Source of the DNA: a virus
Reading direction: 5' to 3' (one strand)
IMG/VR virus record: IMGVR_UViG_3300044612_000719
Location: 33,276-97,275 of that record
Length of the DNA: 64,000 nucleotides
The position numbers and the translations under genes are program-made. This document shows positions 4,520-62,440 of this stretch, in pieces. How positions within the stretch are numbered: the stretch's first letter is position 1; every line of letters starts with the position of its first letter. The notes beneath the pieces were generated by a model that saw only the letters and a list, made by a program, of their open reading frames with translations, was not told the origin of the DNA and did not search any database.

Positions 4520-5604
4520 AACTCTATGCTCGCCGTGTATCTGCTCAAAATCATCATTCCATTTACGCCAGTAGTCCCACCAATACCACCAGCGACATAT
4601 TGCCAACCGTCTGTGTTGACATCAATAGATACTGGAGGGGTGATGTTATTTTGTCCAGTTCCGCCAGCATTTGCAATACTTATTTTGCCAGAATTTCCTG
4701 CCGAGTCAAAAACTGTAATTGTTGGTGCGGCTCGCATACTTACTGGGAACTTTGCAAAACTACAGTGAAAGTTTCCGCTGTTGAAAATGTTGTAATAAAG
4801 GGTAGTTGTGTTTTGTTCATAGTAGTACCGTTCGCATTTAGCAAGCGTTGTGCCGTAGTCTTCAAACTCAAATGGTGTAGCAACAGCACCAGCCTCAAGT
4901 TGAATACCAGTAATGTCAAAGGTTCCAGTAGCGTTTGCGGGAAAAGTAACAATAAAAGAAACTGAACTATTAGACGTAATTGTTTTACCCGATACAGAAG
5001 GCATAGTAAAACTCACGGAAAAGCGTTGCCAAGTTGAAGTAAAACTAAAGTTAGTTGAGTTTACCGCAACTGCACTAGAGCCACCTGTCCCAAACTCTTG
5101 ATATGTTTGCCAGTTAACAGTCCTTGATGCGTCTGCTTTCCCGTAAAAACTTAACGTAACCGTTTGACCATTAAGTTTTCGTACATCTTCAATTCTGGAA
5201 AACATACCGTTCGTTGTTGAACCAGAACCAGCAACAGTAAAAGCAACACGCATATAGTTTGAAACATTCAAACCAGTAGGTTGGTCACCAGTAAAAGTCT
5301 GTTGGCTGATTGTTCGTGTTGCACCAGTGCCGTCGTAGTACATGAACCATCTGTCTGCGATAAAGGCTGCGTTAGCAGGGTTGCTGAACGAAGTCCCTCG
5401 TTGCCAAATCTTAAAGTCCCCGTTTACAACCATGTTCCTGCCACCAGCGATAGGAGCCAACACAGTCCACTGTGTACCATCCCACACCGCAGTCTGGTCA
5501 ACATCAGTCATATAAATAACCTGACCATCAAACGGGGCAGACGGGCGGTTGCCTGAAGTACAGACTCCAGGCTTCAAGCCTTGTGTCGTAGCAGAAATCG
5601 TCAT
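4516..5604 (-). CDS. Tail fibre/receptor-binding protein with carbohydrate-binding-like domain
   Basis: CTSGNRPSAPFDGQ module; RNMVVNGDFKIWQRGTS...ADRW...GIQLEAGAVATPFE...LAKCERYY. Confidence 0.75.
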   Translation of the reverse strand: MTISATTQGLKPGVCTSGNRPSAPFDGQVIYMTDVDQTAVWDGTQWTVLAPIAGGRNMVVNGDFKIWQRGTSFSNPANAAFIADRWFMYYDGTGATRTISQQTFTGDQPTGLNVSNYMRVAFTVAGSGSTTNGMFSRIEDVRKLNGQTVTLSFYGKADASRTVNWQTYQEFGTGGSSAVAVNSTNFSFTSTWQRFSVSFTMPSVSGKTITSNSSVSFIVTFPANATGTFDITGIQLEAGAVATPFEFEDYGTTLAKCERYYYEQNTTTLYYNIFNSGNFHCSFAKFPVSMRAAPTITVFDSAGNSGKISIANAGGTGQNNITPPVSIDVNTDGWQYVAGGIGGTTGVNGMMILSRYTASIEL

Positions 5605-5855
5605 TGCTCTAAAAGACTCTCTTGTCTTTCTGCGGCAGATTGGATGTTGGCAGCAAGTACTACAGCGTCACGGTCAGCAGGAATTTCTGTAATAGTAGGG
5701 TCAGCCAACATACGTTGTACCTCTATTTGGAAGATTTCCTCTATCGCTACACGGCAACGCTCTTTTACTGCGTTGTTAATCCAATCCTGTTGGTCAACAG
5801 CAACATATCCAAGCGCTTTATTTTCTGCTTCCGTAAGTGTGATTGTATATTCCAT
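5601..5855 (-). CDS. Small hypothetical tail-associated protein
   Basis: ORF track; coupled to downstream fibre gene. Confidence 0.55.
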   Translation of the reverse strand: MEYTITLTEAENKALGYVAVDQQDWINNAVKERCRVAIEEIFQIEVQRMLADPTITEIPADRDAVVLAANIQSAAERQESLLEQ

Positions 5856-27398: not shown

Positions 27399-27427
27399 TT
27401 GCTATTCGTACACCCATCCACTAGCCT
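27399..27427 (+). promoter_or_regulatory. Sigma-A-like promoter of the plus-strand operon
   Basis: TTGCTA-17 bp-TAGCCT. Confidence 0.5.
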
Positions 27428-27431
27428 CCAG

Positions 27432-27487
27432 TCAGGAGTTGCGTTGCGGTACGGGGCGCAGTCTCCTGAGGTTCCTTGAAAATTGAA
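27432..27487 (+). promoter_or_regulatory. rrn-like boxB hairpin + boxA antitermination element
   Basis: TCAGGAG...CTCCTGA hairpin immediately followed by GTTCCTTGAAAATTGAA (27471-27487). Confidence 0.5.
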
Positions 27488-27489
27488 GA

Positions 27490-27680
27490 GCGCCCGAATT
27501 GCTTCGGCAAAAATGCACGCATGCATGTGGCACGTCCCCGAGTCCGCTCGGTCGGCTCGTGCCTTGCAGAGATGGCTTCAACGGATCCATGCATGCCCGC
27601 CACGGGGGAATTGAACAACAGTCCCTCACGGCGCATTACTCAACGGCTCAAACCGTTCGCTGACTTCGGGCACATGGTTC
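27490..27680 (+). ncRNA. Multi-branched structured leader domain
   Basis: GCCCGAA (27492) pairs with TTCGGGC (27665-27671), enclosing GCATGCATG/CATGCATGC, GGCAC/GTGCC and AACGG/CCGTT helices. Confidence 0.45.
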
Positions 27681-27690
27681 AAATTCCTCA

Positions 27691-27816
27691 GCGTCACGGG
27701 TCATCTTCGGATGGCTCGTGGCGCTCATAGAGCACTGGGGTTCATCCCCTGACTCCAGTGCTGTATGAGCGCAGAGCGCTCCGCTGGCAACCAGCCAGCG
27801 CAGTCCTGAGGAGGAC
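27691..27816 (+). repeat. Class I intergenic RNA element + SD hairpin GTCCT-GAGG-AGGAC
   Basis: H1 GCGTCACGGGTCATC-TTCG-GATGGCTCGTGGCGC; H2 GCGCTCATAGAGCACTGGGG...CTCCAGTGCTGTATGAGCGC. Confidence 0.75.
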
Positions 27817-27823
27817 ACACACC

Positions 27824-28342
27824 ATGAAAGCAACACGACAGCAACTACTCAATCTCGGAGCCAGCATCCTGAGCACTGCCTATGAAGGCGGGTCTTGCGG
27901 AATGGCTTCATGGGCAGTTGCCAATGGCACCTACAAGTGGGGCACGGAGAAGGGCGAAGGCGAATTGCACGGCAACGAGCACTACGCATCAGTCACCGTG
28001 TACGACACCGAAGCGTGCGAGTTGGTGGAAGACGAAGCCGAATTGGCGAAGTTGACCGATGACGATGGCTTCAATGGCTGGGGCGGGTTCTACCGCTTCG
28101 GCAAGCCACTCGTGATCAATGAGTCCATCATTGCTGACTTCATTGAGAAGATCGGCACAGGTGAGTTCAATCAGGACAATGTGCCTGACTACGGTCAACT
28201 GTCAATCAAGCGGGTGAGTGCCCTTGCAGGGTGCTACCTGTTCGGTGAAGACGCCATTGACGAATTTGAGTCCGACAATGACTGCATCGTGTCTGACACC
28301 ATCGTGCAGTTCATCCTGCTCGGTGAGGTCACATACGGCTGA
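27824..28342 (+). CDS. Early hypothetical protein (ends D..V.D.IVQ..LLGEV.YG)
   Basis: GAGGAGG RBS; start moved to MKATRQ. Confidence 0.75.
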   Translation: MKATRQQLLNLGASILSTAYEGGSCGMASWAVANGTYKWGTEKGEGELHGNEHYASVTVYDTEACELVEDEAELAKLTDDDGFNGWGGFYRFGKPLVINESIIADFIEKIGTGEFNQDNVPDYGQLSIKRVSALAGCYLFGEDAIDEFESDNDCIVSDTIVQFILLGEVTYG

Positions 28343-28346
28343 TCAA

Positions 28347-28427
28347 TCCCCCAGCGCCTAGGGCGTGGCTCTTCAATGAGCACTGGGGACTGTGAGCAAC
28401 CGCTCACTACAACGACCTGAGGAGGTC
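28347..28427 (+). repeat. Class II intergenic element (three-way junction with TTCAAT loop) + SD hairpin
   Basis: CCCCAG-CGCC.TAG.GGCG-TG-GCTC.TTCAAT.GAGC-A-CTGGGG; then GTGAGC/GCTCAC; GACCT-GAGG-AGGTC. Confidence 0.75.
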
Positions 28428-28433
28428 AACACC

Positions 28434-28841
28434 ATGAACACACTCACCAAACTGTACGAGATTCGTTTCTCGGGAACGGTTGAATGCGATATGGAGCCGA
28501 TCATGCACGACATTGCAGTCGCAATTGATAAGGGCACGCTGGAAGAGAGCGACAAGGCGTTTGCCGAGTTCGTAATGGCTCCACAGCGGATCGTGGTCAA
28601 GCGTCAAGGTAACAACACCTACGCAGTGGATCTGTCCATTGAGGGCGTGATCGCATTCGCCAAAGAGGTTGCCTATCGCAAAGAAAATGCGATTGACATC
28701 CGTACCGAGGAGGGCAGTTATGACCGAAACGGTTACAACTACCACACCAAAGTGATCCGTCAACTTGACACCGCATTGAAGGGCGCCAACAAGGTGCTCG
28801 CCAGTGTCGGTATCGCTCCAGTGACTTCATACTGGAATTGA
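28434..28841 (+). CDS. Early hypothetical protein
   Basis: SD hairpin then ATG (MNTLTK). Confidence 0.75.
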   Translation: MNTLTKLYEIRFSGTVECDMEPIMHDIAVAIDKGTLEESDKAFAEFVMAPQRIVVKRQGNNTYAVDLSIEGVIAFAKEVAYRKENAIDIRTEEGSYDRNGYNYHTKVIRQLDTALKGANKVLASVGIAPVTSYWN

Positions 28842-28847
28842 GTGATT

Positions 28848-28941
28848 GAGTGACCTAGTCACTCACCCCTAGCGCCTCGGGCGTGCCGATTCAATTCGGA
28901 CTAGGGACTGGGCAAATAGCCCTCGGAGCAGAGGAGGCTCC
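28848..28941 (+). repeat. Class II intergenic element + variant SD hairpin
   Basis: CCCTAG-CGCC.TCG.GGCG-TG-CCGA.TTCAAT.TCGG-A-CTAGGG; GGAGC-AGAGGAG-GCTCC. Confidence 0.75.
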
Positions 28942-28946
28942 ATACC

Positions 28947-29483
28947 ATGAAAACATCAGAGATAAAGCAGATAATTGCAAAGGATCCGAACGCTGTGTTT
29001 CGCATTGGCGGACGTGGTCGGTACACGCACTACGGCTCAATCACCAAGATTGAGGAGAAGGTCGTGGACACCTACAGCGCATGGGGTCGTAAGTCAGGCA
29101 CCCGTGTTGATGTGCGATTCACAGTGCGTTACGAGTACTTCACTCGTGGCGTTGAGGCTCAGTTTGGTTACCCCGAGAAGTTGCCTTCAGTGATACTGGA
29201 CGGAAACTCGTGGACTAAGCCACGTGACATTGAATGGCACGTAGCGGACTTCGGTATGACCATTGAGGAGTACGTAGCAAAGACTGATGCTGAAGTGAAG
29301 GCGGATTGGCAAGCCAAGAAGGACGACCAATACGCAAAGCAACAGCAGGTCAATGCGATCATCCGACACATCAGTAGCCCAACGGTTACCGATGCCGAGT
29401 GGAACGAACTCAACGATGATCTAGAGCGACTCAGTGTTCAGACATTGCAATTAATCAATCAGAAGATCGCATCACTTGTGTGA
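28947..29483 (+). CDS. Early hypothetical protein
   Basis: ORF track, strong RBS. Confidence 0.75.
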   Translation: MKTSEIKQIIAKDPNAVFRIGGRGRYTHYGSITKIEEKVVDTYSAWGRKSGTRVDVRFTVRYEYFTRGVEAQFGYPEKLPSVILDGNSWTKPRDIEWHVADFGMTIEEYVAKTDAEVKADWQAKKDDQYAKQQQVNAIIRHISSPTVTDAEWNELNDDLERLSVQTLQLINQKIASLV

Positions 29484-29489
29484 TGTGGT

Positions 29490-29597
29490 CGGGAGCATCA
29501 CGGGTTCGCCCGTGGTGCCCTCACAGTGCATCGGCGTTGTGTCGGTGCATTGTGAGGGCATACAATTGCCCGTTCAACTAACAGACCCGAGGAGGTC
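29490..29597 (+). repeat. Class I intergenic element + SD hairpin
   Basis: GCATCACGGG-TTCG-CCCGTGGTGC; GCCCTCACAGTGCATCGGC...GTCGGTGCATTGTGAGGGC; GACC-CGAGGA-GGTC. Confidence 0.8.
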
Positions 29598-29601
29598 AAC
29601 C

Positions 29602-29856
29602 ATGGATGCAAGTATTCACAAAGTAACTGGGTTTCGGATTGAGAAGTCCGATGACCCACGACTCAAGACAATTGATCTCGTGATTCAATACGAGGATTTG
29701 TCGTTTGTTCGTTCCCAATATGAGAACGGCAGTGAGTCATTCGGTTACGCAAAATTGGAGTCCACGATCACGCTGTTCATCAGTGACACCGTTGACATGG
29801 ACGTGGTGGTGTGGCAAGCAATTGCAAACCTCACTTCCGATCTTGCCAATAGGTGA
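29602..29856 (+). CDS. Early hypothetical protein
   Basis: SD hairpin then ATG (MDASIH). Confidence 0.7.
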   Translation: MDASIHKVTGFRIEKSDDPRLKTIDLVIQYEDLSFVRSQYENGSESFGYAKLESTITLFISDTVDMDVVVWQAIANLTSDLANR

Positions 29857-29868
29857 GTAATCCGCAGT

Positions 29869-29978
29869 GGGCAGTCATGGCGCAAGCCATGGCGTGCTCG
29901 GAGTGCACTGATCCCCCATCGGTGCATTCCGAGGACGCAAGTCCATTCACATTCCCTAACTGAAACTTGAGGAGGTTT
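29869..29978 (+). repeat. Class I intergenic element (sequence-diverged) + SD hairpin
   Basis: GTCATGGC-GCAA-GCCATGGC; CTCGGAGTGCACTGAT...ATCGGTGCATTCCGAG; GGAC-GCAA-GTCC; AAACTT-GAGG-AGGTTT. Confidence 0.75.
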
Positions 29979-29979
29979 T

Positions 29980-30696
29980 ATGGGAGCAATAACACCAAAG
30001 CAACAGGCATTCATTCGCACGATGCTCTTAGAGCGTGCTGTCACACTCGGTCTTGATGAGGCTGGTGTTGACCAGTACCTCGTAGATCAGAACGTGAATG
30101 CATTGTCAACTAAGGATGCTTCGCTCGTCATTGATGCGATCAAGAAGATTGAGATCAAGCGAGTGGGCACCGAGCACCTGCCGAAGGGTGATCGCACCAT
30201 CGTCAACAAGATCGCCAAGCCATGCCAACTGTGCGGACACACCGTGCAGATCGGTCATGGCTGGAGCGTTCAAGTTGCCAGTGGCTGGCAGACATTCCAC
30301 AAGGCTGGTGAGTGTTCAGCCGAGGTCATCGCCAAGCCAGTAGATGAGCAATCGCTCTTCGCTGATGTCAAGGATGGCTTCTATGCGTTGCAGTCAACGG
30401 GCACCAATGATCTCGTGTTCTATGCGATCAAGACCAACAAGGGCTACCACAATGCGAGCCTGAAGGGTCAACGTGGCATGTACATCGTGGTCGGCGGTCA
30501 CGCTGACGAGAAGTTGCGTGGCGAGCGCTTGGTCAATTCAATCAAGCGCATCACGTCACTCAGTGAGGATGAACGCAAGCAAGCAATGACGCTGTACGGT
30601 CAGGAGATCGGGCGCTGTTGTGTGTGCGGTCGTCATCTCACTGATGAAGCAACACGCAAGGCTGGTATCGGCAACGACTGCGCAAGCAGGTTCTAG
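29980..30696 (+). CDS. DUF6011-like zinc-binding protein
   Basis: ITPKQQAFI; CQLCG; C-terminal GRCCVCGRHLTDEATRKAGIGNDCA. Confidence 0.75.
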   Translation: MGAITPKQQAFIRTMLLERAVTLGLDEAGVDQYLVDQNVNALSTKDASLVIDAIKKIEIKRVGTEHLPKGDRTIVNKIAKPCQLCGHTVQIGHGWSVQVASGWQTFHKAGECSAEVIAKPVDEQSLFADVKDGFYALQSTGTNDLVFYAIKTNKGYHNASLKGQRGMYIVVGGHADEKLRGERLVNSIKRITSLSEDERKQAMTLYGQEIGRCCVCGRHLTDEATRKAGIGNDCASRF

Positions 30697-30701
30697 GTAG
30701 T

Positions 30702-30807
30702 CACGTCACGGGCACACGCTCGTGGCGTGCTCACATTCCATGGGAGCGATCTCGTGGAGTGTGAGCACGCAAGTGCAATTCACAATTCCAATAGACCTGA
30801 GGAGGTC
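30702..30807 (+). repeat. Class I intergenic element + SD hairpin
   Basis: CACGTCACGGGC-ACAC-GCTCGTGGCGTG; GTGCTCACATTCCATGGGA...TCTCGTGGAGTGTGAGCAC; GACCT-GAGG-AGGTC. Confidence 0.8.
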
Positions 30808-30812
30808 AGACC

Positions 30813-32342
30813 GTGAGTAATCAATTAGAGCAATTAAATACATTGCTTGGTTCACTGCATCGCATACCACCAGCAATCATTGCTGATCCTGCGTTGCTTG
30901 AATTGAGCAGTGCACATGACGGCGAATGCCCAGTGGAACTCGCTGTTCCGCTGTTCCCATTCCAACGTGCTGGTGTCGCTTATGCATTGAAGCAGAAGCG
31001 AGTGATCATCGGTGACGAGATGGGACTCGGCAAGACACCGAGCGGTATCGCTGTTGCGGTACAGGCAGTCAATGAGAAGCACAAGGTGCTCGTAGTAGTG
31101 CCACCATCGCTTCGCATCAACTGGCTTCGCTCATTCAAGATGTTCGCACCATGGCTCAACGTGGCTGTGGTGACGGGCAACAAGGTGGGCGCTCTGCCGA
31201 AGGAGCCAGTAGTCATCATCGGTGACTCCAACATTGACGCTTGGTCAATCAAGTTGGCTGGCAAGTTCGGTGCGCTCATCGTTGACGAGGCACATCGTGC
31301 CAAGACCGAGAGTGCTGGACGCACCAAGGGCATCTCATTCATTGCGAAGTCAATCCCTGAGGAGGGATACGTCACGCTGTTGAGTGGCACCATCATCGTC
31401 AATCGTCCGAACGAATTGATCAGCCCGCTGAATATTCTCGGCAGGCTTGACCGAGTGTTCGGTGGCAAATCAGCGTTTCGCTTCCGCTACTGCGATCCCA
31501 TTCACAATGGCTGGGGTTACGTGTACAACGGTGCGAGCAACACCACTGAGTTGAACGAGAAGTTGCGAGGCACGTGCTACGTGCGCCGTAACAAGTCGGA
31601 CGTGCTCACCGAGTTGCCTGCCAAGCGCCGTGCACAAGTAGCGACCGAGATCAGCGACAGCGATCTCAGCGCATACATGCACGCCGAGAATGACTTCCGT
31701 GACTTCGTTATCGCCAATGGCGGTGCTGAAGCATGGCAGAAGGCATCCAAGGCTGAGACCATCACACGCCTCAATGCACTGCGCATGTTGCTCGGTGTTG
31801 CGAAGGTGCCATACGTGGTGGATCACGTTGAGCAACTAGTTGCTGAAGGTGAGAAGGTCATCGTGTTCGCACATCACAAGGATGTCATCGCACGCTTGAC
31901 TACAGCACTCACTCCGCATGGCGTGGTGCGTGTCATCGGTGGCATGAGCGATGAAGCCAAGCAAGCATCAGTGGATGCATTTCAGAATGACCCCGAGGTC
32001 AAAGTGTTCATCGGGCAATTCCAATCTGCTGGTGTTGGTCTCACGCTCACAGCGTCATCGCACGTTGTGTTCGCTGAGATCCCATTCACGCCTGCCGAAG
32101 CCACGCAGGCTGAGGATCGTGCGCACCGCATTGGTCAGACGTCAAGCGTTCTCGCTTGGTGGATGATCGGCGTGGGTAATAACCCTGACATCCCGTTGCT
32201 GGACGATCGGATGTGGGCATTGCTCAACAGCAAGCACGAGGTCGTCTCCAGTGTTCTCACTGGACAGGGCGAAGACATGGGAGCCGAGGGTGGAAGCATC
32301 ACTCAGGCACTCATTGAAGCAATTGTCGGCAACGGCATCTGA
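30813..32342 (+). CDS. SNF2-family (SMARCAL1/HARP-like) helicase/annealing ATPase
   Basis: IIGDEMGLGKT; IVDEAH; LLSGT; GVGLTLT; QAEDRAHRIGQ. Confidence 0.9.
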   Translation: MSNQLEQLNTLLGSLHRIPPAIIADPALLELSSAHDGECPVELAVPLFPFQRAGVAYALKQKRVIIGDEMGLGKTPSGIAVAVQAVNEKHKVLVVVPPSLRINWLRSFKMFAPWLNVAVVTGNKVGALPKEPVVIIGDSNIDAWSIKLAGKFGALIVDEAHRAKTESAGRTKGISFIAKSIPEEGYVTLLSGTIIVNRPNELISPLNILGRLDRVFGGKSAFRFRYCDPIHNGWGYVYNGASNTTELNEKLRGTCYVRRNKSDVLTELPAKRRAQVATEISDSDLSAYMHAENDFRDFVIANGGAEAWQKASKAETITRLNALRMLLGVAKVPYVVDHVEQLVAEGEKVIVFAHHKDVIARLTTALTPHGVVRVIGGMSDEAKQASVDAFQNDPEVKVFIGQFQSAGVGLTLTASSHVVFAEIPFTPAEATQAEDRAHRIGQTSSVLAWWMIGVGNNPDIPLLDDRMWALLNSKHEVVSSVLTGQGEDMGAEGGSITQALIEAIVGNGI

Positions 32343-32343
32343 C

Positions 32344-32523
32344 CACTGGCGCTCGGCGCCTTCATGGTCGGTGCCTGTAGCGACATCCGAAGCGTTTAGT
32401 CCTCACTGGACGCTTCACAGTGCATCACGGGCGCAAGCCCGTGGTGTTCTCACACTCCATTGGCATATCGTTGGTGGAGTGTGAGAACATCACCCGATGT
32501 TCAACTAGCCCTTTAAGGAGGGG
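32344..32523 (+). repeat. Extra three-way structure, then class I element + SD hairpin
   Basis: CACTG...GAAGCGTTTAGT-CCTC-ACTGGACGCTTC..CAGTG; GCATCACGGGC-GCAA-GCCCGTGGTGT; TGTTCTCACACTCC...GGAGTGTGAGAACA; CCTTT-AAGG-AGGGG. Confidence 0.75.
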
Positions 32524-32526
32524 ATC

Positions 32527-32766
32527 ATGAAAGTAAGTCACGCAATTAAATTATTGAGTGAGATCAATCCTGACGAAGAGATTGCTATCTCTTGGTGGGA
32601 ATCAAACCTGTTCACCATTAGTGACAATAACGAACCACTACCAGCAGACTCAGAACTGTGGCTCAAAGCAGTCTCAGTGTTTGATGCCAACGGTGGTTAT
32701 GACAGTGTCAACCAGTTGGTGTGGGATTACCTCAATTACGACATCAAGCAAGAAGGAGAGTTCTAA
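32527..32766 (+). CDS. Early acidic hypothetical protein
   Basis: ORF track, RBS. Confidence 0.7.
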   Translation: MKVSHAIKLLSEINPDEEIAISWWESNLFTISDNNEPLPADSELWLKAVSVFDANGGYDSVNQLVWDYLNYDIKQEGEF

Positions 32767-33152
32767 TGAGCAACAACGAAACACGACCTACTGAGGGGTC
32801 AATCATCAACTTGGTTGACGTAGAAGGGAATCAATCAAAAATGAAAGTATCGGGAATCGGCACACCAATTGGTGCGTGGGCAATCATCCAATGGAAGGAC
32901 ACGCAACAGGAGGACGAGGTGTACATCTCGTTCGGCACGTGGAATGAGAACGAGTGGGGCGGTGAGTTTGACTCACTGGGCAACCGAGACGATGAGGTCT
33001 TCTTCTACTGCGAAGACGGCGAAGAGGAACTCAAGGCGCTCGTGGGCAGTAGCAACGAAGACTTCGTGGTCTTGTCGTACGACATTGACTACAGCATCCC
33101 ATTGGTACTCGCTGATATGGACGAGCCAGTCTTCGCTGAAGACGGGGAATGA
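32766..33152 (+). CDS. Early acidic hypothetical protein
   Basis: TAATG coupling, AAGGAG RBS; very Asp/Glu-rich. Confidence 0.7.
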   Translation: MSNNETRPTEGSIINLVDVEGNQSKMKVSGIGTPIGAWAIIQWKDTQQEDEVYISFGTWNENEWGGEFDSLGNRDDEVFFYCEDGEEELKALVGSSNEDFVVLSYDIDYSIPLVLADMDEPVFAEDGE

Positions 33153-33269
33153 TCGGGAGCATCACGGGCTACGGCTCGTGGTGCCCTCACAGCACATAAA
33201 TTCTGTTTGTGTGTTGTGAGGGTACAGAGTGCCCGATAAATTAGTTAATCCCTATGACCTGAGGAGGTC
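33152..33269 (+). repeat. Class I intergenic element + SD hairpin
   Basis: GCATCACGGGC-TACG-GCTCGTGGTGC; GCCCTCACAGCAC...GTGTTGTGAGGGT; GACCT-GAGG-AGGTC. Confidence 0.8.
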
Positions 33270-33271
33270 TT

Positions 33272-33631
33272 ATGTTAGAGCCAGTAATCACGATGACCGT
33301 TGAGCAATGGGAAGAGCAATACGAACCCTTTGTTAATCACCTAGATGCGGATGCATCATGGGCAACCGATGACGCCAACGGCATCATGTTTGAGACATAC
33401 GGTGCCGAAGTTGATTATGTGTTTGCCCGACCGCTCAACCACACATGGACATATGTGGACGGCGAAGAAGGCACATACATTCTTGCTGGACGCCATCTCG
33501 TAAATCGCATCGGTTACTTCGTAACTGCGGTGCCATGGAAGGATGACTTCAACACCAAGTATGAAATTCAAGTAAGTGCCAATGATGATTATTACCAAAC
33601 AGTGTTAGACCTTGAAGGAGGTAACCAATGA
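33272..33631 (+). CDS. Early hypothetical protein (FETYG.E...WT.VD...G.H.VNRIGY family)
   Basis: Recurrent phage motif; SD hairpin. Confidence 0.75.
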   Translation: MLEPVITMTVEQWEEQYEPFVNHLDADASWATDDANGIMFETYGAEVDYVFARPLNHTWTYVDGEEGTYILAGRHLVNRIGYFVTAVPWKDDFNTKYEIQVSANDDYYQTVLDLEGGNQ

Positions 33632-33858
33632 AACAACCAACAACATACATCACCACACTTGCTGTTGAAGTAGGCATGGAAGTAGAACTACTTGTGCAGA
33701 TATCTCCGAAGGAGACATTTGAATACGCAGGCATCGTCTCACACATCAGCGAGACCGAGTTGTCAATGTGGACTACAGACAGTCCGAACGACACCTACGA
33801 GAACGAGCGTGAGATTGACATCCCACTCTCAAAGATCATCTCAGTGGACGTGTTCTGA
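33628..33858 (+). CDS. Early acidic hypothetical protein
   Basis: AAGGAGG RBS in a variant hairpin. Confidence 0.65.
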   Translation: MKQPTTYITTLAVEVGMEVELLVQISPKETFEYAGIVSHISETELSMWTTDSPNDTYENEREIDIPLSKIISVDVF

Positions 33859-34109
33859 TGATCCTCGGTGGGTACCCAGTAGTGCGCAGGGACTTGGTGG
33901 AGGCGGATCTTTTGATCCCCTCCGTCAATACCAACGAGTACTACGGGGACGAGCAACTGTCCAAGATGAAGTACATCGGCAGTGTCAATGAGCAGTTTGA
34001 AGATGACGACTCGGGCGCTTACATCAAGTTCTACGCACCTGAAGGTCATGTCGTGTATCTGTACAACATTGACTTAGATTGGATTGAAACATCGTTAAGC
34101 GAGTCCTGA
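33858..34109 (+). CDS. Early acidic hypothetical protein
   Basis: TGATG coupling. Confidence 0.65.
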   Translation: MILGGYPVVRRDLVEADLLIPSVNTNEYYGDEQLSKMKYIGSVNEQFEDDDSGAYIKFYAPEGHVVYLYNIDLDWIETSLSES

Positions 34110-34123
34110 GAGGCTCGTACGAA

Positions 34124-34245
34124 GGGTGACATCAGCCTCGGCTGGTGTCATCCCGTGAGCACTCCCCTTGATCCGCCTTGGGGAGTGTTCACGGGGTGAA
34201 GCAACCCTGCAACACCCATCAACAACAATGATCTGAGGAGGTCAT
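34124..34245 (+). repeat. Class I intergenic element (diverged) + SD hairpin
   Basis: GGTGACATCAGC...GCTGGTGTCATC; CCCGTGAGCACTCCCC...GGGGAGTGTTCACGGG; ATGATCT-GAGG-AGGTCAT. Confidence 0.75.
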
Positions 34246-34491
34246 ATGAAGCAATGGAATGTCACACTCTCGCTCCAAACGGGCGTGTATCTAGAAGGAG
34301 TCAATGCAAAGGATCCACTGGCACTGTACGAGGGCGACCTTAGTTACAGCGCTGTGGTCACAGCATTGATTGATCAATTGCAATCAGGTCAAGCAACACT
34401 TGACTGGGTCGTAGAGGAAGTGGAAACACTGGACGGCGTCACCGTATGCCGTGACGATGAAGATCATGTATGGATGGGAGACGTGGTATGA
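34246..34491 (+). CDS. Early hypothetical protein
   Basis: ORF track, SD hairpin. Confidence 0.65.
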   Translation: MKQWNVTLSLQTGVYLEGVNAKDPLALYEGDLSYSAVVTALIDQLQSGQATLDWVVEEVETLDGVTVCRDDEDHVWMGDVV

Positions 34492-40413: not shown

Positions 40414-41850
40414 TCAATTGTCTTCAGATAGATCCAAGACATCTGCGTACATAGCGTTGGTTGCTTGTGCGCCCATACCGCCACCTTCAAGCATGCGGTT
40501 GGCTTCTCCAGCCTTAGCACCGAACAAGCGAGACAAAACTCCACTGGATCCTCGGGCTTCCATCTCTAAACGGATGGTGTCACGAGTATCGGATATGTTC
40601 TTGAAGCGATCAATGAGATTAAACAAACGATCCATTTCATGTGACAAGGCTGGGTCAAGACCCTGACCTTCTAGTTCTTCTGCAAAGCGAGCGAACATCA
40701 CACGACCTACTTGCATCTCTAACAAGGCACGCATCGCCGCCTGAAGTTGATCCTTTGTTCGGATTTCAATCGGAAGTTTAAATGCGCATTCTGTGTTTTC
40801 TTGAAATGAAGGACATCTGCTACTCAAATAGCAACTATTGCACTGGCGCAAAGGGTTCGCATTGTAGCGAATTACGTTGATCTTTTCGGGGTCTATTTCT
40901 ATAGATTCCCCTTCATTATCAACGGTTTGCGAGCCAAAGGAGGTGATGGTCTCTACCCCCATTACTGGTAGCAATACACGGTCACTCTCGTGCCTCTTAT
41001 TTGGCACGTTGATAGCAATAGTTGACCCCCCAGGAACCCCTAAAGTAGGGGTATGCGGTATAGGTGCGATAGCAACTATTTCATCATTCTGAGGGTCTGT
41101 GAACTCTAGTTCGTCATCGTCATTCATAGGGTCATAGCCCCCAAAAGTGTGGGTCTCCCATTGTTGCCAAGAGGCAATTGCAAGGTTACCGATTGCGGAT
41201 ACGTTGTCTTCCATTACAGCATCAAAGTCAATCCCAAGTCGGATGATGTCTGCACGATGCTTTCTACGTGACGACTCTTTCTGTTGTGCTGGGTAGCGGC
41301 GCAAGCCGTGACCGTCCCACACTTGTGTCTCTCCGTAGCGGATAGCGCTCGTCCACGATCCTGCAATGACGGTATCCCATTGAATACGTTCAATCAGGTC
41401 AGGCTTAGAGGTAATGCCGACTAACTTGGCGCTCCAGCGCTGTGAGATGGATGAGATACGAGCAATGTTGCGCCCTGTGACCGCTTTGTCGCTAATCGCC
41501 GCACGACCATACTTCTGGCAAAGCCATGCCAGACGCTCCAGATCCTGCTCATCATTCCATAGTGGGTAGTATTTCTCACCCAACCAAACGCCATCGTAAT
41601 CAGGGCGACCAATTACAATATCTATATTATCGGCGTGATCACGTACAAACTGGTCAAAGCGCCCTGTGTCCTCATCGTTCTCGGATGTGTACACAATGAC
41701 CTCGCCTCCTCCGTAGAGGACGCTGAGATCTAGTTCTTTCTTCTTGGGGATCGGAAAGTGGGTCAGGTTGATGGCGTAGCGTTTAACGCCAGCGTCCATG
41801 AGCATCTTGCGATACGTCCCCTTTTCCGCTCCACCAAAGAAGATCTTCAC
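40414..41850 (-). CDS. Large hypothetical protein with Cys cluster (C..C.....C........C)
   Basis: RQCNSCYLSSRCPSFQENTECAF; GTG start overlapping upstream stop. Confidence 0.7.
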   Translation of the reverse strand: MKIFFGGAEKGTYRKMLMDAGVKRYAINLTHFPIPKKKELDLSVLYGGGEVIVYTSENDEDTGRFDQFVRDHADNIDIVIGRPDYDGVWLGEKYYPLWNDEQDLERLAWLCQKYGRAAISDKAVTGRNIARISSISQRWSAKLVGITSKPDLIERIQWDTVIAGSWTSAIRYGETQVWDGHGLRRYPAQQKESSRRKHRADIIRLGIDFDAVMEDNVSAIGNLAIASWQQWETHTFGGYDPMNDDDELEFTDPQNDEIVAIAPIPHTPTLGVPGGSTIAINVPNKRHESDRVLLPVMGVETITSFGSQTVDNEGESIEIDPEKINVIRYNANPLRQCNSCYLSSRCPSFQENTECAFKLPIEIRTKDQLQAAMRALLEMQVGRVMFARFAEELEGQGLDPALSHEMDRLFNLIDRFKNISDTRDTIRLEMEARGSSGVLSRLFGAKAGEANRMLEGGGMGAQATNAMYADVLDLSEDN

Positions 41851-42086
41851 TCTTCGTAGCCAGCCTTGCGCCAAACCGAAGGGCTGTGGTTCTGCTCTAC
41901 GAGCATCGCTTCAAGGTCATCTACGTAAAGACGCAGGATGTGGATGCATGGGTCATCGCCATCGTCCCATGCCATGTCTTCGTCCTCGGTGGATGGTAAA
42001 CCATCGTGTGTTGAGCACACTGGTGGACCAACCCACTTGTTCTCTAATCCCATTTTAAGCCATGAGTCAAAATCCATTTCAGACAT
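41847..42086 (-). CDS. Small protein (CSTHDGLP...DPCIH family)
   Basis: Recurrent actinophage motif. Confidence 0.65.
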   Translation of the reverse strand: MSEMDFDSWLKMGLENKWVGPPVCSTHDGLPSTEDEDMAWDDGDDPCIHILRLYVDDLEAMLVEQNHSPSVWRKAGYEE

Positions 42087-62346: not shown

Positions 62347-62440
62347 AGTGTTGGGAGGAGGGCGACCTCCTCAGGACGACAGAGCGGGGGCTTTCCCTCC
62401 TTTCTCCCCCGCCCGTGTTTATGGCTCTCCTCCCAACCGC
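62347..62440 (+). ncRNA. Candidate trans-acting small RNA with two C-rich anti-SD segments
   Basis: 14-bp closing stem GTTGGGAGGAGGGC/GCTCTCCTCCCAAC (G-U on plus strand); GACCTCCTCAGGAC; GCGGGGG-CTTTCCCTCCTTTCT-CCCCCGC. Confidence 0.55.

Follow-up and report, generated by a model that had tools for sequence, protein, structure and literature searches.

In phage early transcripts, T7 (sites R0.3-R1.3) and SP82 provide the examples of intergenic processing by RNase III, an enzyme that cuts duplexes of about two helical turns, usually quoted as ~20-22 bp. Cleavage at the T7 and SP82 sites leaves a protective 3′ hairpin, and in SP82 a strong ribosome-binding site close to the 5′ end stabilises the downstream products. 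Repeated elements of other kinds have also been described. The PeSLs of T4-type phages are short repeated intergenic regulatory motifs, found in a plastic block of small genes, and combine a strong sigma-70 promoter with a terminator stem-loop (PMC2839356, PMC4122927). The SAS/ESAS elements of Cluster K mycobacteriophages combine a conserved motif that contains an SD with, immediately before it, an imperfect inverted repeat of ~17 bp whose arms are separated by a short spacer; they precede a subset of same-strand genes, are conserved per gene family and have a role described as unclear, while the TTGACA-17-TACTGT that the ESAS carries within a near-perfect palindrome is now read as a SigA-like promoter (PMC3203893, PMC11373665).

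We analysed a 64,000-nt window of the uncultured virus record IMGVR_UViG_3300044612_000719 (positions 33,276 to 97,275), in which an earlier note, made from the sequence alone, had pointed to seven copies of a repeated intergenic element. A covariance model searched without filters against all 97,275 bp of the genome recovered the same seven, all on the plus strand and scoring 53-77 bits (27690-27778, 29494-29565, 29871-29942, 30702-30774, 32421-32494, 33158-33229 and 34125-34198). No other match exceeded 32 bits genome-wide; the minus-strand shadows at these sites reached 12-32 bits, and the top unrelated match 11.9 bits. It should be noted that the copy at 34125 is divergent, lacks the TCACGGG core and was itself part of the model's seed. 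The motif of the first hairpin, H1 (CACGGG-N3-14-CYCGTGG), occurs five times compared to 0.04 expected. All seven copies are intergenic and oriented like the genes of the block at 27.7-34.2 kb. A further ~150 copies come from related contigs of uncultured phages (~30), every one of them in this block and on the same strand, and the element model had no matches in 600 kb of bacterial loci. Both the confinement to one gene block and the placement rule, in which stop codon, element and SD follow one another in the orientation of the genes, hold for the source genome and four related near-complete genomes.

The modules begin a median of 14 nt after the stop codon, and the MFE folds of the window copies reproduce the shared architecture initially proposed: H1 (7-13 bp), a long H2 (15-24 bp), a small H3, a linker and an SD hairpin. 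In the general layout, H1 has 9-10 bp, conserved U-G and C-A positions and a GNRA or UNCG loop. H2 abuts it directly and is nearly perfectly paired over 15-24 bp (median 18 bp; 21-24 bp at the longest in the window), spanning two helical turns in four of the seven window copies, or in all seven if stacked on H1; it is mostly uninterrupted, a conserved G-G mismatch being retained only by the GAGGACGC subfamily. H3 is a small hairpin, the 5′ arm of which is the terminal part of the H2 3′ arm. The linker is A/C-rich and G-poor (46% A, 28% C, 7% G) and leads to an SD hairpin, uniform in 58 of 69 copies, that presents the GAGG of a strong Shine-Dalgarno site (motif GACCUGAGGAGGUC); the start codon lies a median of 36 nt from the end of H2. 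Fold z-scores range from -6.2 to -8.6 over the seven copies, with none of 200 shuffles folding equally well.

Module 1 (27690..27823, plus strand like all the others; 53.9 bits, z -8.56) lies in the 5′ leader of the block's first gene and is conserved in six relatives. Its H1 (27695-27720, UUCG loop) and H2 (27721-27772, 21 bp) are followed by a further hairpin and the SD hairpin (27802-27815). Module 2 (29484..29601; 76.6 bits, z -6.53) separates a 178-aa gene from an 84-aa gene, with a core at 29494-29565 (H1 with a UUCG loop, H2 of 15-18 bp), an H3 of GGGCA/UGCCC and an SD hairpin at 29584-29597. Module 3 (29857..29979; 65.4 bits, z -6.23) lies upstream of a DUF6011 gene and comprises a core at 29871-29942 (H1 with a GCAA loop, H2 of 20 bp with a G-G mismatch), the H3 GGAC-GCAA-GUCC (29933-29944) and an SD hairpin at about 29961-29980. 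Between the DUF6011 gene and an SNF2 helicase gene, Module 4 (30697..30812; 72.2 bits, z -6.59) has its core at 30702-30774 (H2 21 bp), the H3 GCAC-GCAA-GUGC at 30765-30776 and its SD hairpin at 30794-30807. Module 5 (32343..32526; 76.8 bits, z -6.31), after the SNF2 gene, starts with extra upstream hairpins, continues with the core at 32421-32494 (H1 with a GCAA loop, H2 of 15-24 bp) and ends with H3 (32477-32494, GAACAUC/GAUGUUC) and the SD hairpin (32509-32522). In Module 6 (33153..33271; 72.5 bits, z -6.96) a closing stem, UCGGG/CCCGA, accompanies the core at 33158-33229 (H1 with a UACG loop, H2 of 21 bp) and the SD hairpin (33256-33269). The divergent Module 7 (34110..34245; 53.5 bits as a seed member, z -6.48) has a 13-bp H1 (34124-34153), a 14-bp H2 (34154-34193), H3, a long A/C-rich linker and an SD hairpin at 34229-34244; its orthologs score 34-44 bits.

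The elements are structures of the sense-strand RNA, as seen from covariation, an excess of G-U pairs and the GNRA and UNCG loops. In 70 distinct copies, 92.6% of cells pair, compared to 30-52% in slid controls, and compensatory changes occur in 23 of 26 pairs; these values were reached by none of 500 shuffles. This puts figures on the G-U pairs and compensatory changes noticed at the outset: G-U cells outnumber A-C cells by 262 to 18. The UUCG, GCAA and UACG tetraloops named there are indeed H1 loops, and 57 of 68 distinct H1 loops are of the GNRA or UNCG type. An independent MAFFT/RNAalifold alignment of the Module 4 orthologs (group A5) was 99.3% paired, with 11 compensatory pairs, and recovered H3. 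Sequence in H1 and at the base of H2 is conserved beyond the need for pairing (C-G in 69/70, A-U in 70/70 and U-G in 61/70 copies). Rfam gave no matches over the 64 kb at gathering thresholds; below them only miRNA-precursor-like hairpins and PyrR appeared (PyrR at 41 bits vs. a threshold of 54), and none of the known self-cleaving ribozyme families matched in this comparison. The covariance model that the earlier note had proposed has been built, and the elements are still without an Rfam counterpart. With ~150 instances, strong covariation and absence from Rfam, the existence of a new structured-RNA family is well supported.

The overlap between the arms of successive helices, also part of the initial description, is real, and H3 at least covaries. 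The base of H2 and both arms of H3 change jointly, with GAAC/GUUC against CAGC/GCUG in one case and GGAC/GUCC against GCAC/GUGC in a second. In copy 32421, CAUCAC stands 5′ of H1 and again 3′ of H2, UGCCC at the 5′ base of H2 is repeated as the 3′ arm of H3 in copies 29494 and 33158, and GGAC-GCAA-GUCC overlaps the lower stem of H2 in copy 29871. Pairing of the 5′ end with the 3′ end, suggested for two copies, is found in the MFE structure of 33158 (ATCGGG/CCCGAT) and is possible in 29494 (CGGG/CCCG). Copy 32421 has two near-isoenergetic folds. The centroid and MFE folds are the same in five of the seven copies, which are therefore not clearly bistable, and 'branch migration' is best read as a description of predicted alternative pairings.

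The elements probably occupy the spacers of a long early-type operon with one upstream promoter. Each copy either follows a stop codon and precedes the next SD or, in the case of the first gene, forms part of the leader, and the block at 27.7-34.2 kb looks like one long transcription unit, its polycistronic nature being inferred. Promoter-like and terminator-like sites in the block do not exceed shuffle expectation, and no U-tract follows the hairpins. Sigma-70-like hexamers (at least 9 of 12 matches) occur in 5 of 78 distinct elements, vs. 2.6 ± 1.6 in shuffles, and in none of the window's own elements. A promoter-like site, a hairpin and a boxA-like GGTTCCTTGA(A/C)AA precede the first copy both in the window and in five relatives; these conserved operon-head signals fit one long read-through transcript. 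The phage's own genome has no RNase III gene, a point against the processing reading given below. An actinobacterial host can only be guessed at, from the DUF6011 gene and distant matches (~35% identity) to Streptomyces-phage polymerases.

Comparison of relatives shows that recombination at element cores has moved, added and removed gene cassettes, giving direct support to the idea that the repeats offer homology for cassette shuffling. Positions 5352-5537 of relative L020 match L013 at 4900-5085 (92%), and 5513-5700 match L013 at 5510-5697 (90%), the two segments overlapping in H1 only. The chimeric element at L020:5512, with the H1 of one copy and the H2 of another, brackets a gene gain or loss. 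An identical 72-nt Module 2 core stands behind four different upstream genes in relatives, the type of H1 tracks the gene before it and the type of H2 the gene after it, and cassette order differs between relatives, the permuted cassettes being bounded by elements.

We tentatively favour, without rating it as probable, the view that each element is a T7/SP82-type RNase III punctuation site, leaving H1 as a 3′ cap and a new 5′ end that carries H3 and a strong ribosome site. The seven elements would be copies of a lineage-specific, cis-acting structured RNA module, in which the host's RNase III, or another enzyme that likewise favours long duplexes, would cut H2. The upstream cistron would then end in H1, which could be lengthened by the freed outer pairs and would block 3′ exonucleases, while the downstream cistron would start with H3 and the strong ribosome-binding site, protecting its 5′ end. 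One transcript would thereby yield messages each stable and translated on their own, with the conserved cores serving, as a by-product, as short homologies for recombination. When the halves left by a cut in H2 were refolded, a terminal extended H1 and a 5′-proximal H3 formed in six of the seven copies. The search for sequencing runs turned up only two sets of contigs, probably from DNA, and no RNA run with the sequence. Against this reading, H2 is often only 15-18 bp, under the usual substrate length, so stacking on H1 or extension of the lower stem would be needed; since most H2 helices are near perfect, with no T7-style strand-limiting internal loop, double cuts are predicted. The earlier note had already taken the elements for processing or stabilising sites that turn one transcript into protected monocistronic mRNAs: RNA-level structure, the lack of an Rfam match, one apparent transcription unit and cassette shuffling all stand, and processing itself keeps the tentative rank given here.

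The same structures could act uncleaved, as a REP-like barrier to 3′ exonucleases that also gives each ribosome-binding site the same local structure whatever gene lies upstream. This is unlikely in our judgement, even if very stable helices with extra-stable tetraloops, the unstructured A/C-rich linker, the uniform SD hairpin, identical elements behind four different genes and an H2 sometimes of just 15 bp would all suit it. It leaves unexplained why two adjacent hairpins, an overlapping H3 and a long H2 are conserved, and blocking exonucleases at the 3′ end would achieve little unless an endonuclease first cut the RNA. The strong conservation of H1 exceeds the needs of RNase III and hints at a sequence-specific partner. 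The elements could be docking sites for a sequence-specific phage RNA-binding or endonuclease protein, or put-like two-hairpin RNAs that modify the elongating polymerase for antitermination or pausing. Conservation of H1 and the H2 base beyond pairing, the two abutting hairpins and the boxA-like antitermination signal at the operon head point this way; but the early-block proteins have no Pfam or PDB matches to RNA-binding folds and offer no candidate, there are 7-11 copies per operon where put has one site per promoter, and Rfam holds no match. We consider this improbable.

A relay linked to translation appears a little more improbable still. Here a ribosome terminating 8-20 nt upstream would re-set a chain of helices that exclude one another (the closing stem, the outer part of H1, the base of H2 and H3), making access to the next start site depend on how heavily the upstream cistron is occupied. 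The stop codon is suitably close to H1, and in two ortholog groups it and the closing stem overlap, the duplicated segments provide alternative pairings, H2 base and H3 arms change together, and copy 32421 has its near-isoenergetic folds. However, most copies are not clearly bistable by the centroid comparison, the unpaired linker parts the SD hairpin from H3 with no evident pairing path to the start site, and the first copy has no upstream cistron. The least credible reading, to which we give very little weight, places the function in DNA, as a promoter/operator cassette of the PeSL or ESAS kind or as an attC-like single-stranded recombination site. Repeated intergenic inverted repeats do bound the shuffled cassettes, with inter-copy recombination demonstrated, some members of one ortholog group contain TTGGCT-17-TA(C/T)AAT, and in the Cluster K ESAS, too, a 17-bp inverted repeat directly precedes a motif with an SD. 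Against this, duplex DNA sites would not be expected to show the excess of G-U over A-C or tetraloops of the RNA type, pairs covary freely to any Watson-Crick combination, unlike an operator, promoter-like hexamers are not enriched, U-tract terminators are absent, no tyrosine recombinase was found in the source genome or four related genomes, and the model has no match in Adephagia.

A bolder extension, which we regard as doubtful, is that the element is one RNA connector device, whose chain of mutually exclusive helices would refold after cleavage or ribosome termination to cap every cistron, the H1/H2 junction being the crossover point. The 3′ cap (H1) would then be inherited with the upstream gene, and the 5′ cap and start region (3′ arm of H2, H3 and SD) with the downstream gene, so that any cassette recombined at the junction would automatically be expressed correctly. 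This would amount to an integron-like cassette system built on RNA structure and homologous recombination, with no integrase. Should the processing model be true, a very different phage group, a lineage of uncultured ~97 kb phages, would join T7 and SP82 in dividing an early polycistronic RNA into protected messages, with a different, modular architecture. The family also offers a clean example of a regulatory repeat becoming a cassette-exchange joint, each gene taking with it the H2 before it and the H1 after it, and bears on the shuffling of phage 'dark-matter' early genes. The module, a compact spacer that is free of terminators and gives a uniform setting for ribosome binding, could interest operon designers.

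How, then, do the elements relate to known systems? The ESAS and PeSL share some features with them. PeSL copies, too, recombine with one another, which yields insertions, deletions and replacements of the kind exemplified here by the chimeric L020 element, but the elements have no promoter hexamers above chance and no U-tracts, and their constraint is on RNA pairing; we therefore rejected identity with PeSLs. Cluster K SAS/ESAS share the actinophage-type setting and an inverted repeat near an SD motif. The Adephagia ESAS sequence was read directly, and identity was rejected here too: the SAS consensus is GGGATAGGAGCCC, vs. the element motif GACCUGAGGAGGUC, the elements contain no SigA-like promoter palindrome and have in addition the tetraloop hairpin H1 and the G-U bias, and model R1 found nothing in Adephagia at an E of 0.4 or better. 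Integron attC sites are likewise structured imperfect palindromes after promoterless same-strand gene cassettes, and REP/BIME sequences are intergenic palindromes, REP stabilising upstream mRNA; in contrast to both, folding here is favoured on the sense strand, with RNA tetraloops, and the family occurs in one phage gene block only. An attC identity was discarded, PF00589 being absent from the source genome and four related genomes (14/14 controls positive) and the sense strand, not the bottom DNA strand, being favoured. The sites of T7 (R0.3, R0.5, R1, R1.1 and R1.3) and the SP82/SPO1 early sites share related hairpins between the genes of early operons read by host polymerase, one of them ahead of the first gene, with copies similar to each other in sequence and no U-tract. 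They have no sequence similarity with the elements, and each is a single irregular hairpin, whereas here two hairpins abut and a third overlaps; an internal loop limits cutting to one strand in T7, whereas H2 is near perfect. The elements are thus a new family of an already familiar type of phage signal.

A single plus-strand gene block runs from 27824 to about 36.8 kb of the window, flanked on both sides by minus-strand genes; within its first 6.5 kb, all spacers of more than about 90 nt adopt a very stable fold. Seven of these spacers share one unit, consisting of a short H1 helix, a long H2 directly abutting it, a small H3, a linker and an SD hairpin presenting GAGG as part of a strong Shine-Dalgarno site, with cores beginning at 27690, 29494, 29871, 30702, 32421, 33158 and 34125 (all +). 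The block genes lie at 27824-28342, 28434-28841, 28947-29483, 29602-29856, 29980-30696 (DUF6011), 30813-32342 (SNF2), 32527-32766, 32766-33152, 33272-33631, 33628-33858, 33858-34109 and 34246-34491 (all +); searches of Pfam, PHROG function, PDB and Atlas gave no lead for the early-block proteins. The parent IMG/VR virus record is 97,275 bp long and rated complete, the window being its positions 33276-97275, and the window also codes for a family-A DNA polymerase, a second SNF2 helicase, a DpdA-like transglycosylase and tail-fibre proteins. The DpdA-type gene, which resembles queuine tRNA-ribosyltransferase (40414-41874, -), suggests that the phage DNA carries a 7-deazaguanine modification.

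The module folds have z-scores of -6.2 to -8.6 against dinucleotide shuffles, and the H1 motif occurs five times where 0.04 occurrences are expected. A covariance model seeded with the seven window cores, including the divergent copy at 34125, was run over the whole genome with filters off. It recovered the same seven plus-strand sites only (53-77 bits), exactly the seven copies of one architecture described in the earlier note; their reverse-strand shadows scored 12-32 bits and nothing else in the genome exceeded 12 bits. Placement between genes is regular, with a median of 14 nt from the upstream stop codon to the start of H1, a median H2 length of 18 bp (15-24 bp in the window copies) and a median of 36 nt from the end of H2 to the next start codon. 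A makes up 46% of the linker, C 28%, G 7% and U 19% (26/24/27/22 across the whole block), and the GAGG loop is closed by a stem of at least 4 bp in 58 of 69 distinct downstream regions.

Across 70 distinct copies, 92.6% of cells fall in standard pairs vs. 30-52% with the partners slid, and double compensatory changes are seen at 23 of the 26 pairs, values that no shuffle attains. Because this alignment is fitted to the model, the pairing test was repeated on an alignment made independently with MAFFT/RNAalifold from the 11 orthologs of the element 3′ of the DUF6011 gene; here 99.3% were paired, 11 pairs were compensatory, and all three helices (H1, H2 and H3) came out again. G-U and U-G cells outnumber A-C and C-A cells by 262 to 18; the plus-strand G-U pairs and compensatory changes of the earlier note are borne out. 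Three wobble positions are kept in 43-61 of the 70 copies, and therefore correspond to mismatches in the complementary strand. Tetraloops account for 57 of 68 distinct H1 loops (40 GNRA and 17 UNCG), the loop class swapping between the two among orthologs. Together, the pairing, compensatory changes, G-U bias and tetraloops argue for selection on a folded sense-strand RNA.

The overlapping helices reported previously prove accurate as a description, with shared arms found in the copy at 32421 and in the GAGGACGC subfamily. At 32421, GUGGUG has two possible partners, a CAUCAC on its 5′ side (outer H1) and another 3′ of H2 (H2 extension), and GAACAUC is used both by the base of H2 and by H3 (GAACAUC-ACCC-GAUGUUC); the two alternative folds are predicted to be near-isoenergetic. 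In the GAGGACGC subfamily, the terminal part of the H2 3′ arm forms GGAC-GCAA-GUCC. The centroid and MFE folds coincide in five of the seven window copies. H3 is itself under selection, because copies show compensatory differences: GCAC/GUGC at 30765-30776 vs. GGAC/GUCC in most copies, and GAACAUC/GAUGUUC vs. CAGCAUC/GAUGCUG in another subfamily. These examples and the ortholog alignment provide the support for H3, rather than a crude automated search (4.2 bp observed vs. 3.6 bp in shuffles). Two ortholog groups retain a closing stem, ATCGGG/CCCGAT, of which the stop codon is part; the stem shows one wobble variant and zero double changes.

A search with the DUF6011 protein led to 24 related IMG/VR loci (60-99% amino-acid identity), in which about 150 sense-strand copies score 27-77 bits with the model. 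Four related genomes (completeness rated at 99-100% for three and 78% for one) each contain six to nine copies, all on one strand within a single 5-9 kb block. New matches from a viral pattern scan all belong to the same lineage, and a metagenome scan yielded 14 further stretches, matched by pattern rather than by model, that we judge from repeated matches per contig to be this lineage too. A search of sequencing runs listed no RNA run; two wastewater runs, which have 13% of the searched words, yielded contigs of relatives that are probably DNA. In bacterial genomes, a pattern scan met only chance H1-like matches; of the control loci, picked because the H1 motif occurs there by chance, none of the 80 bacterial ones (600 kb) fit the model, and the unrelated viral ones (about 550 kb) held no match outside the lineage. 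Megablast and blastn against 50,697 phage records found no cultured relative of the block or of one element, and at the protein level the closest matches, at only about 35% identity, are to phages of Streptomyces, Thermus and Arthrobacter. Of the checks proposed in the earlier note, the covariance model turned up further copies within the lineage only, and Rfam returned no family at its own threshold, and no known ribozyme or riboswitch.

Gene maps of 13 loci share a constant core (element, 84-96-aa gene, element, DUF6011, element, SNF2, element), outside which the order of gene families between elements varies. The H1 variant tracks the upstream gene and the H2 variant the downstream gene; H1 ATCACGAGTGTGAACTCGTGGT invariably follows one gene family, yet is combined with two H2 types, and one identical element is preceded by four different upstream genes. 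Two related contigs, L020 and L013, match over 5352-5537 vs. 4900-5085 (92%) and again over 5513-5700 vs. 5510-5697 (90%), with H1 as the sole overlap of the two matches. Between two L013 elements lies a gene of about 105 aa that is missing at this place in L020 and found elsewhere in the L020 block. At the sequence level, this pattern is the mark left by homologous recombination between element copies. Comparing the genes between elements in relatives thus upheld the suggestion of cassette shuffling, through the junction in H1 and the permuted orders. A relative's contig from metagenome run X2 omits 1083 nt (window 28412 to 29496), so that module 2 starts directly after the stretch just 5′ of the SD of the second gene; two genes are therefore missing in that relative, and the skip is bordered by intergenic elements.

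Other signals surround the elements. A promoter-like site resembling TTGACA-17-TAAGAC lies 5′ of the first element in five relatives (L013, L016, L020, L026 and L009), and a leader alignment (A4) shows a GC hairpin and a boxA-like GGTTCCTTGA(A/C)AA before the first element in these five and in the window (27399-27690, +); the leader is about 200 nt long in the window vs. about 90 nt in relatives. Just 5′ of module 1 H1, AUUCCUCAG is able to pair with the first gene's SD. Spacers 28343-28433 and 28842-28946 (+) have in common a three-way junction unlike the seven-copy element, with an outer stem CCCCAG/CUGGGG or CCCUAG/CUAGGG enclosing two small hairpins; the covariance model is blind to this structure, which is a second element class of the block. 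An additional hairpin in the SNF2 gene 3′ UTR (32385-32420, +), just 5′ of module 5, varies in its stem among relatives and keeps a constant loop, GUCCUCAC, that resembles the H2 5′ arm and the anti-SD sequence. The PyrR binding site of Rfam gives a match below its threshold at 34088-34190 (+) (41 bits vs. a threshold of 54, E 0.004); AGUCCUGAGAGGCU, PyrR loop consensus-like and kept in relatives, covers the stop codon just 5′ of module 7. The sole other exact TGAGGAGGT in the window is at 62365-62373 (-), in a non-coding gap.

Taken as a whole, the element is a real, strongly supported and uncatalogued RNA family with a supported role in recombination and a function that we infer. The best reading, to which we give slightly less than an even chance, is an RNase III-type punctuation site: the elements follow position rules, promoters and terminators are lacking, H2 is a long duplex, and the early RNAs of T7 and SP82 offer an analogy. 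A cut within H2 would leave H1, in extended form, at the end of the upstream fragment and H3 at the start of the downstream one. When such a cut was modelled, both ends were obtained in six of seven copies, which would give the overlapping arms a purpose. On the other side, H2 is often under two helical turns and has no T7-type internal loop, and H1 sequence is conserved beyond the needs of RNase III. A search for a phage-encoded partner found no RNase III gene in the phage genome. A search for a T7-like RNA polymerase gave no match, but neither did its controls.

Set against the RNase III-type site are an uncleaved stabiliser or insulator, a translation-linked relay, docking of a protein or polymerase, and a reading at the DNA level. 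As to the last, the pairing, wobbles and tetraloops oppose both a duplex-DNA protein site and a template-strand hairpin. An attC/integron reading is rejected, because a tyrosine recombinase is absent from five genomes of the lineage and folding favours the wrong strand. A promoter or terminator reading is likewise rejected: within the block, neither promoter-like nor terminator-like sites exceed the number expected from shuffles, no U-tract follows the hairpins, and sigma-70-like hexamers are near chance (5 of 78 elements vs. 2.6 expected), four of the five elements coming from one ortholog group. In some relatives, TTGGCT-17-TATAAT or TACAAT is made from the H2 loop and post-H2 tail of the element upstream of the 84-aa gene (L026:5161, L020:5512 and L025:2946), and may be an internal promoter limited to that ortholog group; the corresponding window copy has only TTGTGT-18-TACAAT.

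In presumed function, the element is nearest to the T7 and SP82 sites, a resemblance rather than a claim of membership. In layout, its nearest actinophage analogue is the ESAS/SAS motifs of Cluster K mycobacteriophages, whose role is termed unclear in the literature; the ESAS of the Cluster K phage Adephagia, read directly, carries TTGACA-17-TACTGT within a near-perfect palindrome, and the model finds no match in that phage. The promoter-early stem-loops (PeSLs) of T4-type phages combine a promoter with a terminator, whereas our element has neither above chance; the likeness lies in recombination between copies, as in the PeSLs.
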